A stretch of 15,506 nucleotides of DNA from a virus (IMGVR_UViG_2703718798_000014:1-15506); one strand, 5' to 3'; positions 680-15,506 are shown, numbered from the stretch's first letter. Notes: generated from the letters alone by a model not told the origin. Numbers and translations: made by a program.

Positions 680-1915
680 GTGGGAAAAGCACTAAACAAA
701 CTGAGCGATTCGACGTTAAAAAAATTGGCGGCTGTCCAGGCAGAAAAAGAGCGTTTTTACTCCGACGGGGGCGGGCTGGAGATTAAACACTCAAAAGGCG
801 GCAAATTAACCTGGTATTTTCGGTACCGAACGGGAGGCCGTGAGGTCGCCGCAGAGCGGTTAAAGCTGGGGGCTTACCCTGAGCTGTCGCTGAAAGCTGC
901 TAGGGAAAAACGCACACAGTGCCGGTCATGGCTGGCTGAGGGTAAAAATCCCCGTTATGAGTTGTGCGCCACAGTACAGGAAGCATTAAAACCCGTTACG
1001 GTGAAGGAGGCGATTAACTACTGGCTGGAGGAATACGCGAAGGATAATCGCAAAGACTACATAAAACTGGTGCAACGTATGGATAAGCACATCATTTGCC
1101 ATATAGGGGCAATCCCTCTTGATAAATGCGATACAAGGCAGTGGATCGCATGTTTTGACCGTGTACGAAAAAAAGCACCAGTAGCAGCAGGGCACGTCAT
1201 GCAAACCTGCAAACAGGCGCTAAAGTTCTGCCGCAGGAGGCGCTACGCGTTCAGTAATGCCCTGGACGATTTGATCGTCAGCGATGTGGGTAAGAGAGCA
1301 GAAATTCGCGAGAGGGTACACAGTAACAGCGAATTAAAGGAAATTTTACGCGCTATCGATGGTGATGTGTTCGCGCCTTACTACAGCGCGTTAATGCGCT
1401 TGCTGATTGTGTTCGGGTGCAGAACGGCAGAGGTCAGACTTTCAGAGATCAAAGAATGGGATCTGAAAGAAATGTTGTGGACAGTGCCAAAAGAGCACAG
1501 CAAAACGAAGGTAACGATATTCAGGCCAATCCCCGATGGCATTTTGCCGTTCATTCAGAAGCTGGTGGAGCAGAACCGACATACAGGGTTATTGCTCGGA
1601 GAACTGAAAAAAGATACCACGGTAGCGCAATATGGGCGAAATGCGCATAAGCGGCTTAACCAGGAACACTGGTCGCTGCATGACTTTCGCCACACGTTTA
1701 CAACGATGATGAACGATTTAGGTGTCGATCCGCATATCGTGGAGCACATCACAGCGCATCAGATGCCCGGTCAGCAAAAAACCTATAACCATTCACGCTA
1801 TTTACAGGCAAAGCGTGACGCCCTTAATCTATGGGTAGACCGTCTCGAGCTTCTCCAGAACAATGATGAAAAAATCGTTGTTATGATCCCGCGAATTTAC
1901 ACCCAAAATTCTTGA
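680..1915 (+). CDS. int: Tyrosine recombinase / phage integrase (P4-type, N-terminal arm-binding domain)
   Basis: 411 aa ORF with GTG start and AAGAGG RBS 8 nt upstream. C-terminal catalytic signature HDFRHTF...HITAH...YNHSRY (R/H-x-x-R/H, tyrosine). Lies at the island edge next to the junction. Confidence 0.9.
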   Translation: MGKALNKLSDSTLKKLAAVQAEKERFYSDGGGLEIKHSKGGKLTWYFRYRTGGREVAAERLKLGAYPELSLKAAREKRTQCRSWLAEGKNPRYELCATVQEALKPVTVKEAINYWLEEYAKDNRKDYIKLVQRMDKHIICHIGAIPLDKCDTRQWIACFDRVRKKAPVAAGHVMQTCKQALKFCRRRRYAFSNALDDLIVSDVGKRAEIRERVHSNSELKEILRAIDGDVFAPYYSALMRLLIVFGCRTAEVRLSEIKEWDLKEMLWTVPKEHSKTKVTIFRPIPDGILPFIQKLVEQNRHTGLLLGELKKDTTVAQYGRNAHKRLNQEHWSLHDFRHTFTTMMNDLGVDPHIVEHITAHQMPGQQKTYNHSRYLQAKRDALNLWVDRLELLQNNDEKIVVMIPRIYTQNS

Positions 1916-2323: not shown

Positions 2324-2518
2324 ATGCGCGAAATAAATGAAGATCGTGTAATCCGCGAAAAAGAATGCAGAGAGCTAACAGGCGTTTGCCGCACAACTCG
2401 TTACGAGATGGAAAAACAAGGCCGCTTTCCCTCCCGTATCAGTCTTGGCGGTCGTTCGGTTGGCTGGATTAAGTCTGAGGTTGTCGCCTGGGTCAAAAAC
2501 CGCGAACGCGTCAATTAA
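2324..2518 (+). CDS. alpA: AlpA-family (Xis-like, MerR-type winged helix) transcriptional regulator
   Basis: 64 aa; motif ELTGVCRTTRYEMEKQGRFPSRISLGGRSVGWIKSEVVAWV matches the AlpA pattern TG..R.T.Y....G.FP....LG.R.VGW..SE...W. Position immediately after int is typical of P4-like elements and PICIs. Confidence 0.85.
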   Translation: MREINEDRVIREKECRELTGVCRTTRYEMEKQGRFPSRISLGGRSVGWIKSEVVAWVKNRERVN

Positions 2519-2550: not shown

Positions 2551-2577
2551 TTGTTTGTACTTGTTCGCGGTTGTTCG
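2551..2577 (+). promoter_or_regulatory. Triple-box module TTGTTTGTAC-TTGTTCGCGG-TTGTTCG (10-bp register)
   Basis: Boxes begin at 2551, 2561, 2571. The same module recurs at 577-603, 15426-15452 and, in variant form, 7910-7936; a looser copy at 514-540. Followed by SD TAAGGAG (2608-2614) and ATG 2624. Confidence 0.55.
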
Positions 2578-2676
2578 TGAAGAAAAGAAGCGGCGCGTAT
2601 GCACCGCTAAGGAGTTTATTTTCATGACTTATGCAGCTTTCAATCTTAGCACCGCCGTAGCTGGTGGACAAGGCTA

Positions 2677-2904
2677 TCAGCCAGGCGGTCGGTTTTTGCC
2701 GGATTTAAGCCGCCGTGGGTATTTCTCGACAAAATCTTCAAGGGCAAATTTTTCTGGTGGCACTAAGCGCGGCGCTGGTGGTGGTATTTTTGTTCTGGTT
2801 AGTTCTTCCTCAAGTCTGGCGCAGGCTTCTGACTGCCTTTGCCGGATGATTTCATCATCTTGCGTTTGCGTGTCTTGTATTGGTGATAGTGTGTTGTTGG
2901 TCAT
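2677..2904 (-). CDS. Hypothetical protein (75 aa), second gene of leftward regulatory pair
   Basis: ORF downstream of and co-directional with the RHH gene; charged, helical-looking composition; weak RBS. No recognised domain. Confidence 0.4.
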   Translation of the reverse strand: MTNNTLSPIQDTQTQDDEIIRQRQSEACARLEEELTRTKIPPPAPRLVPPEKFALEDFVEKYPRRLKSGKNRPPG

Positions 2905-2961
2905 GATACTGCCCTGTAAAGCAATGCGCCGGAGTACCTCACACCACGGCGCTGATAGTGA

Positions 2962-3141
2962 TTATTCTGATTCTTTGGCCTTACGGCGCTGGCGGCGTTT
3001 GATCTCGCCTCGCATGGCTGTAACGATAAATTGCGCAGTGCTCTCGCCTGTTTCTTTTACTTGCTCCATAGCCTCAACAACTTCATGCGGGGCGCGAGCC
3101 TGTAATTTCTGTGATTTGTTATTGATATGGTCTCTTTCCAT
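2962..3141 (-). CDS. Ribbon-helix-helix (CopG/Arc/MetJ-like) DNA-binding protein, candidate island repressor
   Basis: 59 aa ORF, below the ORF-track length cutoff, translated by hand: MERDHINNKSQKLQARAPHEVVEAMEQVKETGESTAQFIVTAMRGEIKRRQRRKAKESE. Segment LQARAPHEVVEAMEQVKETGESTAQFIVTAM fits the RHH beta-strand/helix A/G-x-S turn/helix B pattern. AGGGA RBS 8 nt upstream. Start abuts a triple-palindrome operator. Confidence 0.5.
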   Translation of the reverse strand: MERDHINNKSQKLQARAPHEVVEAMEQVKETGESTAQFIVTAMRGEIKRRQRRKAKESE

Positions 3142-3157
3142 TTCTGGTTCCCTTTGT

Positions 3158-3259
3158 GATTACTGGAATCCAGTATACACGAAAAAGACCAAAACAAAAC
3201 GCTTGAAGTGGATTCCACTTAGTGATTATACTGGAATCCAGTTGAGTGTTTATCACTCA
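3158..3259. promoter_or_regulatory. Divergent promoter/operator region: three related palindromes (ACTGGAaTCCAGT x2, AAGTGGAtTCCACTT) plus IR TTGAGTG-N5-CACTCAA; candidate rightward promoter TTGAAG-N18-TATACT
   Basis: Perfect palindromes at 3163-3175, 3206-3220, 3230-3242. O1 and O3 sit in ~22-bp direct repeats (TGATTA(TA)CTGGAATCCAGT). -35 TTGAAG 3203-3208 and -10 TATACT 3227-3232 are overlapped by O2 and O3. A second TATACT on the minus strand (complement of 3173-3178) could serve the RHH gene. Confidence 0.5.
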
Positions 3260-3338
3260 ATGCAAACGAGGCTGAAAAGGATTGCCGTCCTTTCGCAGCC
3301 TCTGACCACCAACGATAGCGAAAGTATCGAGGTAGCTA

Positions 3339-3538
3339 TGAGAAATCATACCACACACCCGCAAGGGCGGGACTCGCACAACCTGAATAAATTCACCTGG
3401 CGCTTTATGCAGTGCCTGACAGACAGCATTGCAATATTCACCGTTACCGCTGCCACTGAACGCGAAGCCCGCGCCCAGTTGCCGCACGCACATCTGATTT
3501 TTGTCGCCCGTATTCGTCAGGGGGTGTGCCATGCCTGA
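3339..3538 (+). CDS. Hypothetical protein (66 aa; alternative start 3260 gives 93 aa), first gene of rightward operon
   Basis: GAGGT RBS 5 nt upstream of ATG 3339; E. coli-preferred codons; stop overlaps next gene start (coupling). Strand assignment is uncertain: an antisense ORF (3257-3532) covers the same DNA. Confidence 0.35.
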
Positions 3539-3851
3539 TATGTCAAATTACCAGTACCTGATTAATCCGCATTTTAAGTGTGATCATGATATTGCTAAGA
3601 AGGTTTATTCCGCTGCTGATGGGGCTACTGACAATATATCAATGGGTATTGCGTCAATTGGTAGCCTTATGTTTCATGCGTCAGAAAATGAGGAATATGA
3701 CGAAAAGGCCATGCGCATTGATATGGGTAATATCGGTTTGTTACTGGCAATGCTTGGACATTTTGATATTTCGTTACGGTGCACCATTGAAAATGCCACA
3801 GATGCATTAAATGCCATAAAGAAAGCGAATACTGATTCAAATCGGGGATAA
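3531..3851 (+). CDS. Hypothetical protein (106 aa)
   Basis: ATG 3531 with AGGGGG RBS 6 nt upstream; overlaps previous stop. No recognised motif. Confidence 0.5.
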   Translation: MPDMSNYQYLINPHFKCDHDIAKKVYSAADGATDNISMGIASIGSLMFHASENEEYDEKAMRIDMGNIGLLLAMLGHFDISLRCTIENATDALNAIKKANTDSNRG

Positions 3852-3857
3852 ATAATC

Positions 3858-4157
3858 ATGAGAACGTATTTATCTGGCTTGACTGCCAGCGGTTATGCAC
3901 ATCCAAAAATTATCCCCGGCGCTATTTATCGGGATAAGAACGGCAACAGAGTAACAGTAAAATCGATAATGTTTGACCGTGTGTATTTTATTCGTGATGG
4001 CTATTCATTTCATAGCTCGCTGAACGTGGAGATCTTTATTTGCAGATTCCGGCGGGAAATTCCGCCTTCCAGAAATAACCATGTGTCATGTATGGATGTT
4101 GATAAAAAACTACAGGAACTGAAAAACATGATTGCCGCGTGGAGAGAGCAGAAATGA
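3858..4157 (+). CDS. Hypothetical protein (99 aa)
   Basis: ATG 3858 with GGGGA RBS; stop overlaps primase start (ATGA). Confidence 0.5.
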   Translation: MRTYLSGLTASGYAHPKIIPGAIYRDKNGNRVTVKSIMFDRVYFIRDGYSFHSSLNVEIFICRFRREIPPSRNNHVSCMDVDKKLQELKNMIAAWREQK

Positions 4158-5971
4158 AAAAAGCGCCAAATTTAAAACACCAGCCACGTGACAAAATGAC
4201 GGAAGTCATCATTTTTGCGGGTAGTGATGCGTGGGCACATGCGAAGCAGTGGCAGGAACAGGACGGGCGACTGGCTGGCGATAACGTGCCACCTGTCTGG
4301 CTTGGAGAGCAACAACTTGCCGAACTGGACAACCTGCAAATCGTACCGGACGGACGCTATCGCGTGCGTCTCTATCAGGCGGGGTTATTGCGTTCGGGGC
4401 TTGTTAATACCATCGGGCAGAAACTGGCAGCGGCAGGTGTCAGGGATGCTGATTATTACCCTGAAGGAATGCACAGCCAGAAACGGGAGAACTGGCGCGA
4501 ATATCTGGAACGTGAGCGGGGAGATCTGACGGAAAAGAAAAAGGTAGTTGAACTGCCTGTAAAGAAAAAAGAGCGGGTAAAAGACGATAACGCTTCATCA
4601 CTGGCGCTTAACCAGATGGGAGCAAGTCAACGCGGCGAAGTTCTCCTGGCACATTATGGCGGTGAACTGGCGATTAATGCTGACTCTGACACTGTTCACC
4701 ATTACAACGGCGTTGTATGGGAGCCAGTACAGGATAAAGAATTACAGCGAGCTATGGCACAGATTTTCATTGATGCGGAGATCAGCTATTCGCAGAACGC
4801 CATTAAATCGGCGGTCGATACCATGAAGTTAAGTTTGCCTGTAATGGGGAATACAGCCCGTAACCTGATTGGATTCAGTAACGGGGTATTTGATACCCGT
4901 ACAGGTGATTTCCGTGAACACGATAAAAATGACTGGCTGTTAATTGCCAGTGAGTTACCGTTCACTCCACCAGCAGAAGGTGAAACGCTGGCAACACATG
5001 CGCCGAATTTCTGGAAGTGGTTACGCCGTTCGGTGGCTGAGAATGACCGCAAGGCAGATCGCGTTCTGGCAGCGTTATTTATGGTGCTGGCGAACCGGTA
5101 CGACTGGCAGTTATTCATTGAGGTAACAGGTCCAGGGGGAAGTGGTAAAAGCGTGATGGCGGAGATTTGCACCATGCTGGCGGGTAAGGCCAACACAGTA
5201 TCGGCAAGCATGAAGGCGCTGGAAGATGCAAGGGAACGCGCGTTAGTGGTTGGCTTTTCGCTGATTATCATGCCGGATATGACCCGCTACGCTGGTGATG
5301 GGGCAGGAATTAAGGCCATTACAGGCGGTGACAAGGTGGCAATTGACCCGAAACACAAAGCCCCCTACTCAACGCGTATTCCGGCAGTAGTGCTGGCGGT
5401 TAACAATAACGCCATGTCATTCAGTGACCGCAGCGGGGGGATCTCGCGCCGTCGGGTGATATTCAATTTTTCGGAAGTTGTACCGGAGAACGAACGCGAT
5501 TCAATGCTGGCGGAAAAAATAGAAGGTGAGCTGGCGGTAGTGATTCGTCATCTGCTTACACGGTTTGCTGACCAGGACGAAGCCAGACGCCTTTTATATG
5601 AGCAGCAGAAATCAGAAGAAGCACTCGCGATAAAGCGTGAAGGTGATTCGCTGGTGGACTTCTGCGGCTATCTCATGGCGTCGGTAATGTGTGATGGCCT
5701 GTTAGTGGGTAATGCTGAAATTGTGCCATTCAGCCCGCGCAGGTATCTCTATCATGCCTATCTGGCTTATATGAAGGCACATGGGTTTGGTAAACCTGTA
5801 ACACTGACGCGCTTCGGTAAAGATATGCCGGGGGCAATGGCGGAATATGGCAGGGAGTATATGAAACGGAAAACGAAGCACGGTTTGCGTTCAAACGTGA
5901 CACTGACGGAGGAATCAGAAGACTGGATGCCGTCATGTGTATCGGTCACTAATGACGATAGCAAAAATTAA
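4154..5971 (+). CDS. DNA primase/helicase, P4-family (SF3 helicase-type NTPase)
   Basis: 605 aa from ATG 4154 (GGAGAG RBS 7 nt upstream; the track start 4139 is an upstream GTG). Walker A GPGGSGKS in ...FIEVTGPGGSGKSVMAEI...; Walker B-like LIIMPD. Followed directly by an iteron array of the P4 ori type. Confidence 0.85.
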   Translation: MKKAPNLKHQPRDKMTEVIIFAGSDAWAHAKQWQEQDGRLAGDNVPPVWLGEQQLAELDNLQIVPDGRYRVRLYQAGLLRSGLVNTIGQKLAAAGVRDADYYPEGMHSQKRENWREYLERERGDLTEKKKVVELPVKKKERVKDDNASSLALNQMGASQRGEVLLAHYGGELAINADSDTVHHYNGVVWEPVQDKELQRAMAQIFIDAEISYSQNAIKSAVDTMKLSLPVMGNTARNLIGFSNGVFDTRTGDFREHDKNDWLLIASELPFTPPAEGETLATHAPNFWKWLRRSVAENDRKADRVLAALFMVLANRYDWQLFIEVTGPGGSGKSVMAEICTMLAGKANTVSASMKALEDARERALVVGFSLIIMPDMTRYAGDGAGIKAITGGDKVAIDPKHKAPYSTRIPAVVLAVNNNAMSFSDRSGGISRRRVIFNFSEVVPENERDSMLAEKIEGELAVVIRHLLTRFADQDEARRLLYEQQKSEEALAIKREGDSLVDFCGYLMASVMCDGLLVGNAEIVPFSPRRYLYHAYLAYMKAHGFGKPVTLTRFGKDMPGAMAEYGREYMKRKTKHGLRSNVTLTEESEDWMPSCVSVTNDDSKN

Positions 5972-15497: not shown

Positions 15498-15506
15498 GGT
15501 TTTTAA

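Follow-up and report, generated by a model that had tools for sequence, protein, structure and literature searches.

How is the replication operon of a Gram-negative PICI kept silent, and is a repressor involved? The published model of these satellites comprises the activator AlpA but no repressor, whose existence was called 'unclear' (PMC6092414). AlpA is needed for the induction of EcCICFT073, where it activates its own transcription and downstream genes (PMC6092414), and it is also required for the induction of EcCIEDL933 (10.1101/2022.09.08.507074). A homologue in Pseudomonas is reported to be an antiterminator (PMC9371919). The locus analyzed here raises the question anew, as three palindromes are located between a small leftward gene and a rightward replication operon. 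In the following, the window is the whole stretch of DNA that was analyzed (15,506 nt). All coordinates are given on the window and refer to the plus strand unless stated otherwise.

Genetic setting of the regulatory region

The features of the region are compiled in Table 1. Judged by its gene content, the window represents a capsid-forming PICI (cf-PICI)-type island. Farther along the window, genes for SSB, an HK97-type capsid protein (Phage_capsid), a protease (Peptidase_S78), a portal protein (Phage_portal), HNH, TerS (Terminase_4) and TerL follow. The gene set of a cf-PICI (integrase, alpA, primase, own capsid, protease, portal and TerS/TerL) was thus found; as the window ends at position 15506, the right end and the lack of tail genes could be seen only in part. 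An island copy of 96.6% identity adjoins cspD in E. coli UCPROB-002, and its RefSeq annotation was also used for the target operon.

Table 1. Positions of genes and regulatory elements in the window
Feature	Position	Strand	Basis or remark
Integrase	680-1915		Pfam Phage_integrase
alpA, activator/excisionase family	2324-2518	+	Pfam Phage_AlpA, E = 7.5e-16
Terminator-like intrinsic hairpin closing the leftward transcript	2589-2608	-	Terminator scan
75-aa proline-rich ORF	2677-2904	-	3' of the repressor gene, probably co-transcribed
59-aa YlcI/YnfO gene, predicted RHH repressor	2962-3141	-	Start at 3141
Site A, CTGGAATCCAG	3163-3173		Within the 13-bp palindrome ACTGGAATCCAGT (3162-3174); corresponding site at -32
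Putative leftward -10, TATACT	3172-3177	-	AGTATA on the + strand
A-rich tract	3178-3202	+	Just 5' of the rightward -35; kept across loci
Rightward -35, TTGAAG	3203-3208	+	Promoter scan
Site B, GTGGATTCCAC	3208-3218		Within the 15-bp palindrome AAGTGGATTCCACTT (3207-3221); corresponding site at -77
Rightward -10, TATACT	3227-3232	+	Promoter scan; 18 nt after TTGAAG; predicted start near 3239-3240
Site C, CTGGAATCCAG	3231-3241		Within the 13-bp palindrome ACTGGAATCCAGT (3230-3242); corresponding site at -100 or -112
Conserved structured leader	3242-3337	+	Folds of related leaders; alignment A2, 53 loci
Leader hairpin 1	3242-3260	+	Inverted repeat TTGAGTG/CACTCAA, directly 3' of site C
Leader hairpin 2, long, two-tier	3268-3302	+	Covariation
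Single-stranded stretch CUGACCACCAA		+	Between hairpins 2 and 3; invariant CU(A/G)ACCA in the alignment
Leader hairpin 3	3313-3329	+	Followed by Shine-Dalgarno GAGG (3329-3332)
Icd-like 66-aa protein, first gene of the rightward operon	3338-3535	+	NCBIfam NF033153, 54.1 bits (cutoff 25)
106-aa ORF, predicted target operon	3531-3851	+	
DUF4222 protein, predicted target operon	3858-4157	+	Pfam DUF4222
D5-type primase-helicase, predicted target operon	4139-5971	+	Pfam D5_N, DUF5906, Pox_D5

Searches of Pfam, NCBIfam, PHROGs and PADLOC gave no match to the 75-aa ORF, and related loci of other species lack it; it looks like variable cargo. A PADLOC search with the small ORFs did not detect a defence system. 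On the other side of the intergenic region, the rightward series of genes begins with an Icd-like ORF in 57 of 61 loci. The protein falls into PHROG families labelled 'transcriptional repressor' (phrog_6196 and phrog_1743), but its sequence does not track the operators. An open frame of 327 aa (2555-3538, +) runs across the regulatory region antisense to both leftward genes and is almost certainly spurious.

Putative operators and promoters in the intergenic region

The motif TGGANTCCA occurs three times in the 15,506-nt window, while 0.23 copies are expected by chance, and all three copies lie within an 80-bp stretch. None of 200 shuffles of the window contained three or more copies. A first-pass annotation of this DNA had described three GGA-N-TCC palindromes between the RHH start at 3141 and the rightward gene, overlapping a candidate promoter TTGAAG-N18-TATACT. 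All three sites (3/3 in 15.5 kb) were confirmed with the sequence given there, and a promoter scan recovered the same promoter. A search for STGGAWTCCAS allowing up to two mismatches found perfect copies only at the three operator sites; the remaining matches were near chance level (17 versus 9.9 expected), and no extra copies beyond chance were detected elsewhere in the island, e.g. near alpA or int. TATA followed by CTGGAATCCAG was reported by a repeat finder as an inverted pair (3162-3177 with 3227-3242).

The sites overlap the elements of two predicted divergent promoters. Site B occupies the spacer between -35 and -10 of the rightward promoter, and site C overlaps its -10 and the predicted start. 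Site A overlaps the leftward -10 at its end, includes the predicted start of the leftward transcript near 3165 and is therefore the predicted site of autoregulation. The putative leftward promoter has a poor -35 (GTTTTG, at about 3195-3200). The A-rich tract that precedes the rightward -35 may serve this promoter as an UP element. On the minus strand, a further strong promoter-like match (TAAACA, 16 nt, TATAAT; 3252-3225, 10/12) opposes the rightward promoter. It was rejected as the promoter of the repressor gene since related loci do not conserve it, in contrast to the TATACT at 3177-3172.

The direct repeat GTGATTA (3156-3162 and 3222-3228) precedes sites A and C on the plus strand, resulting in CTTTGTGATTA and CTTAGTGATTA. 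Its conservation does not extend to other genera, and it could have arisen by a local duplication or serve as an accessory half-site.

Conservation of the scaffold in related loci

Sixty related loci, one per species, were taken from genome contigs across Enterobacterales; promoter elements were counted in 41 dereplicated loci. Reading rightward, the order of the elements is start codon and ribosome binding site of the repressor gene, site A joined to the leftward -10, A-rich tract, -35, site B, -10 and site C. Counted from the start codon of the repressor gene, the sites of the related loci begin at -32, -77 and -100 or -112. De novo counting of 9-mers revealed three copies of a locus-specific 9-mer at these positions in about 49 of the 60 loci. 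The leftward -10 TATACT was present at the same position in 37/41 dereplicated loci, the rightward -35 is conserved as TTGA(A/C/G)G, and TAnnnT follows it at 17-18 nt in 29/41 loci.

The comparison also disclosed the general form of the operator, an 11-bp frame (C/G)TG-N5-CA(C/G). In most of the related islands, its N5 lacks symmetry. The palindromes in the window are thus the local form of this operator, with an N5 (GAWTC) that is symmetric by happenstance. From centre to centre, the sites are 23 or 35 bp and 45 bp apart, each value lying close to a multiple of about 11.4 bp. Operators were identical among relatives whose dS is saturated (1.4-2.4).

The 59-aa protein

The product of the leftward gene belongs to the YlcI/YnfO family (NCBIfam NF041551, 72.3 bits with a cutoff of 30, E = 2.4e-20, residues 9-50), and identical proteins carry this name in RefSeq. 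Homologues were found across Enterobacterales. Scanning 1.84 billion representatives in full with HMMER yielded only 93 YlcI/YnfO clusters; the family is therefore small. Compared to relatives of the same class, the gene has a dN/dS of 0.02-0.08 with dS saturated, and the ORF is evidently a real, conserved gene under purifying selection. A tblastn search against 50,697 phage records (threshold 1e-3) gave no match and thus no evidence for a close homologue in a helper phage. In Yersinia pekkanenii (locus L056, 532-864), the repressor occurs as a 110-aa variant with an insertion and, in its C-terminal helix, a second copy of the motif EIKRRQRKK. Among the family members found in the search of the representatives were also several proteins of about 100 aa in which two stretches matched.

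A ribbon-helix-helix (RHH) fold is predicted for the protein on the basis of an AF2 monomer model (pLDDT 86.8), while RHH proteins act as dimers. The model shows an extended segment (residues 9-18, KSQKLQARAP), predicted to form a strand, which is followed by two helices (19-28 and 35-58), as in the RHH (Arc/MetJ/CopG) fold. The fold assignment rests on this model. At the sequence level, the protein is only weakly linked to curated RHH families. By hhalign, K9-T31 was aligned with K6-E28 of Arc (E = 0.0014, probability 18%). The Pfam family PSK_trans_fac matched with E = 0.024 and 16 bits, below its cutoff of 28.3. Searches of PDB sequences with the protein and with the family profile did not detect an RHH protein, and Foldseek found nothing for the 59-aa protein. 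The best structural matches of the protein include the RHH antitoxins Rv0298, CopA_SO, HicB, TacA and ParD.

In the Arc-operator structure, Q9, N11 and R13 are the residues of Arc that contact bases. According to the hhalign alignment, K12, Q14 and R16 of the 59-aa protein fall on these three positions. Within the family, positions 12-14 are among the most variable, while N7, S10 and R16 are invariant.

Specificity classes

N5 is common to the three sites of one locus and differs between loci. Sites B and C deviate from site A of their own locus by 3.6 mismatches of 22, compared to 8.1 if site A of another class is used. Which N5 is present goes along with the strand residues of the adjacent protein (Table 2), and the remaining classes follow the same pattern. 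The correlation between operator N5 and strand residues (r about 0.70; partial r = 0.53 after controlling for the remainder of the protein) was reached in none of 2000 permutations. By contrast, the operator core and the Icd-like protein are correlated with only r = 0.12, though the Icd-like ORF is equally near the operators. There were 11 class pairs with different operators in spite of Icd-like proteins at least 85% identical, and 19 class pairs sharing the operator with Icd-like proteins of 45% identity or less.

Table 2. Strand residues of the YlcI/YnfO protein and the operators found with them
Strand	Operator
QK[LVI]QARA	GGA(A/T/C/G)TCC
QKMSARV	CTGGCACCCAG
QQLNARF	GTGAATCGCAC
QMTTVRI	GTGAAATACAC
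LQVSVRL	GTGAACACCAC
QALKARV and QSLKSRV	GTGTGGCCCAC
KKLEARV and RKLEARV	GTGTCAGCCAC
KKMQARV and QKMQARV	GTGTGCTCCAC

The other genes of the islands do not follow the operators either. E. coli islands with repressors 97-100% identical and with identical operators have AlpA, integrase and Icd-like proteins sharing 31-35%, 25-27% and 51-59% identity, respectively. The same operator was found in Serratia fonticola (L002), where a D5 primase is missing and AlpA is 31% identical, and in two loci (L003 and L004) whose primase is only 48-54% identical. Conversely, four loci with a 76-77% identical primase (L019, L038, L054 and L055) carry a different operator. Because the operator core is decoupled from Icd, AlpA, integrase and primase, repressor gene and operators behave as an independently recombining cassette. 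On the other hand, the repressor gene adjoins the operators and, therefore, part of the co-variation could be due to linkage. The comparison with the Icd-like protein speaks against linkage, though it is not a perfectly symmetric control.

EcCICFT073 and distribution of the cassette

The relation between strand and operator was applied to EcCICFT073, the prototype of the Gram-negative PICIs, whose coordinates were taken from the supplement of PMC6092414 (locus L065, E. coli CFT073, NC_004431.1, 1380473-1381052). This island possesses a RefSeq YlcI/YnfO gene (C_RS30120) divergent from an Icd-like gene (C_RS30125); both tags are far from the numbering of the neighbouring genes (C_RS069xx), and neither small gene is discussed in the papers on this island. 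Since the strand reads QALKARV, GTGTGGCCCAC was predicted as operator. The intergenic region contains GTGTGGCCCAC twice and a copy with two mismatches, CTGTCCCCCAC, beside TATAC, at the expected places, and the rightward promoter elements are TTGACG and TATAGT separated by 18 nt. The class code held in this one out-of-sample prediction. The YlcI/YnfO gene is unmentioned in PMC6092414, in the cf-PICI preprint (10.1101/2022.09.08.507074), in the satellite census and in the helper-embedded PICI paper. A description of the module was not found in the literature searched (YnfO/YlcI, PICI and RHH, satellite and ribbon-helix-helix).

Of 5,426 complete E. coli genomes, 99 contain a single copy of the cassette class of the window; many of these belong to Shiga-toxin-producing serotypes. 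In E. coli O157:H7 146N4 (L062, 11532-21337), the identical repressor protein and operators are part of a satellite that is inserted into the gene for the large terminase of an Stx1a prophage. The integrase and AlpA of this helper-embedded PICI are very different (25% and 35% identity, respectively). In variants of 94-95% identity, the operators are invariant, while the spacer and the loop of a leader hairpin vary.

Six genomes contain two or three co-resident islands (L005/L010/L042, L036/L045/L056, L025/L028, L023/L044, L032/L048 and L004/L041), and these always belong to different repressor/operator classes. This is compatible with hetero-immunity, with cases too few for significance: different classes in about 10 within-genome pairs would arise by chance in an estimated one of roughly four trials. 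Hence, no claim is derived from the co-resident classes, nor from the single copy in the 99 E. coli genomes.

The leader RNA of the rightward operon

The rightward transcript is predicted to begin with a conserved structured leader, which all loci have in common (Table 1). Its structure was defined by hand and tested by pair counts because RNAalifold on the raw MAFFT alignment recovered only six pairs. For hairpins 2 and 3, compensatory changes were detected in 14 of 18 tested pairs, and 89.5% of the cells were paired compared to 26-41% when the partners were slid. Hairpin 1 has stems of at least 6 bp in 51% of the loci, whereas shuffles reached this in 6%. The inverted repeat at 3242-3260 is part of this leader RNA rather than an operator.

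Rfam searches of the whole window at the gathering threshold and of positions 3100-3600 at E values up to 10 detected neither C4/isrK nor another family. The best isrK match scored 10.9 bits (gathering threshold 50), lies on the opposite strand and is at chance level. The leader RNA stays, therefore, unclassified. Possible functions are attenuation, control of translation or, by analogy with P1 c4 and P4 CI, that of an immunity RNA.

Discussion

What is expected of an RHH repressor/operator switch can be read from this locus: repeated sites lie over the core promoters, and their core co-varies with the strand residues of the protein that is predicted to bind them. We consider it probable that the 59-aa YlcI/YnfO protein is an RHH repressor and that the three 11-bp sites are its operators. 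With similar confidence, the locus can be interpreted as an autoregulated system in which the protein would occlude the promoter of the replication operon. The first-pass annotation had proposed a repressor switch and named conservation of the palindromes in homologous islands as a test. Conservation at fixed positions over conserved divergent promoter elements bears it out. All computational checks proposed there turned out in its favour, and the switch itself is supported computationally by a real conserved 59-aa gene, by the scaffold and by the co-variation of core and strand, with binding and repression as predictions. The same annotation had set a divergent repressor apart from the E. coli PICIs known to rely on AlpA. 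While the literature indeed describes AlpA and no repressor, the cassette turned out not to be unusual, as EcCICFT073 carries it.

The mechanism may be envisaged as follows. Since sites B and C lie on the spacer, the -10 and the start, protein bound there should exclude RNA polymerase from the rightward promoter, and the leader, the Icd-like gene, the DUF4222 gene and the primase operon would be kept off while the island is integrated. Judging by the position of site A, its occupation would shut the leftward promoter of the repressor gene itself. The invariant residues N7, S10 and R16 may read the constant (C/G)TG...CA(C/G) frame and the variable strand residues 12 and 14 the N5 core, a division that would give rise to many mutually orthogonal repressor/operator classes. 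Gene and operators would travel together, as one cassette, among islands with different integrases, AlpA and Icd-like proteins and replication genes.

Several other explanations for the sites were weighed. AlpA, which is encoded in the window and whose requirement for the induction of EcCICFT073 and EcCIEDL933 speaks for it, might bind the sites and switch on the rightward operon. This is very unlikely, as identical operators are accompanied by AlpA proteins of only 31-35% identity (31% in S. fonticola), positions in the spacer and over -10 and start are those of a repressor and not of an activator, and the site core follows the RHH strand residues. The Icd-like protein could likewise bind the sites and autoregulate its own operon, in agreement with the 'transcriptional repressor' label of its PHROG families and its first place in the operon of 57/61 loci. 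However, the marked difference between its correlation with the operator core (0.12) and that of the RHH strand (about 0.70), together with the 11 class pairs in which nearly identical Icd-like proteins are associated with different operators, renders this highly improbable. It is also conceivable that the 59-aa protein is a type II antitoxin with the 75-aa ORF as toxin, the palindromes merely autoregulating the pair. Both the RHH antitoxins among the best structural matches and the gene order, antitoxin first and small ORF next, would fit. Yet the 75-aa ORF has no family match and is absent from related loci, so that a conserved toxin was not found. Moreover, alpA is located only 101-250 nt after the RHH gene in many loci, which therefore have no room for a toxin, and two of the three sites lie on the rightward rather than the leftward promoter. 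We regard this possibility as quite improbable.

Short repeats adjoining a replication operon may also be origin iterons or loading sites of the primase-helicase, and P4-type primases bind repeated sites at their origin. The presence of the same operator in L002 without D5 primase and in L003 and L004 with a 48-54% identical primase, as well as the different operator of the four loci with a 76-77% identical primase, make such a function extremely unlikely. The report of PICI origins downstream of pri (PMC6092414, PMC10111431) counts against it as well. Finally, the palindromes could be RNA hairpins in two 5' leaders or chance repeats without function. Sites A and C indeed coincide with the beginning of the two predicted transcripts, and site C is followed by a real conserved leader hairpin. 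Nevertheless, the sites are kept at fixed positions although most classes have an asymmetric N5 and arms of 3 bp, and thus cannot form a hairpin. Furthermore, site B lies upstream of both predicted starts, and chance is excluded by the shuffles (0/200) and by the scaffold shared between loci. This explanation is hardly credible.

For the repressor reading, the question of induction arises. In all 42 loci in which alpA was found downstream of the repressor gene, the two genes are convergent, often with a gap of 100-250 nt and without a clear terminator in the direction of alpA. This arrangement favours a model of interference or read-through: helper-activated transcription of alpA might silence the repressor gene and/or read through into the operon. 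Both this model and the alternative, a helper-encoded anti-repressor, are speculation. In view of the published AlpA-dependent induction without a repressor, the protein may not be the induction switch. Its role could instead be copy control or the exclusion of other satellites.

The proposed mechanism as such is that of a classical RHH repressor switch, and the novelty lies in the protein family, in its occurrence in Gram-negative PICIs including the prototype, and in the many specificity classes. The RHH proteins Arc and Mnt of the P22 immI region have no detectable family-level sequence relationship to the 59-aa protein. In P22, two proteins act on one 21-bp operator of adjacent half-sites, whereas here one protein faces three 11-bp sites 45 and 23 bp apart. 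Unlike Arc and Mnt, the 59-aa protein possesses a long basic C-terminal helix (GEIKRRQRRK), and its predicted target is the replication operon of a satellite instead of an antirepressor gene. CopG of pMV158 and omega of pSM19035 are RHH repressors of replication or copy-control promoters. They belong to a different sequence family (hhalign against CopG gave a probability of 1%) and to plasmids with another site architecture, while the element described here is an integrated phage satellite.

The Stl/Rpr master repressors of the Gram-positive PICIs (SaPIs) are larger and are not RHH proteins. As in the present locus, their genes are divergent from the excision/replication operon (PMC6092414). 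Derepression of Stl by a helper protein has been demonstrated; only the divergent gene arrangement is shared here, and the islands also need AlpA. EcCICFT073 and EcCIEDL933, to which the AlpA-only model applies, are elements of the same type, and their published model lacks a repressor. The P1 immI region (c4 RNA-icd-ant) resembles the locus in having a repressed promoter, a structured leader RNA and an icd-like gene. With respect to the P1 c4 and P4 CI RNAs, the leader differs by the missing Rfam C4/isrK match, and an antisense target pairing was not identified.

A functional study of the YlcI/YnfO family was not found in the literature search, and the prediction made here is the first one for this uncharacterised family. 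With it, the AlpA-only model gains a candidate layer of repression ahead of the replication operon, and the open repressor question in Gram-negative PICIs becomes testable, even in EcCICFT073. A more far-reaching and rather doubtful possibility is that Gram-negative PICIs, cf-PICIs and helper-embedded PICIs, EcCICFT073 among them, have in this swappable cassette their missing master or immunity repressor. It would then be hetero-immune with at least a dozen orthogonal specificities, relieved by convergent transcription from alpA and complemented by the leader RNA as a second layer like P1 c4/P4 CI. The loci provide a natural set of predicted orthogonal pairs of 59-aa repressors and 11-bp operators with a readable residue-to-base code. 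They suggest that satellites may carry immunity groups, as lambdoid phages do. Such groups would bear on the co-residence and competition of islands with virulence and defence genes in pathogenic E. coli.
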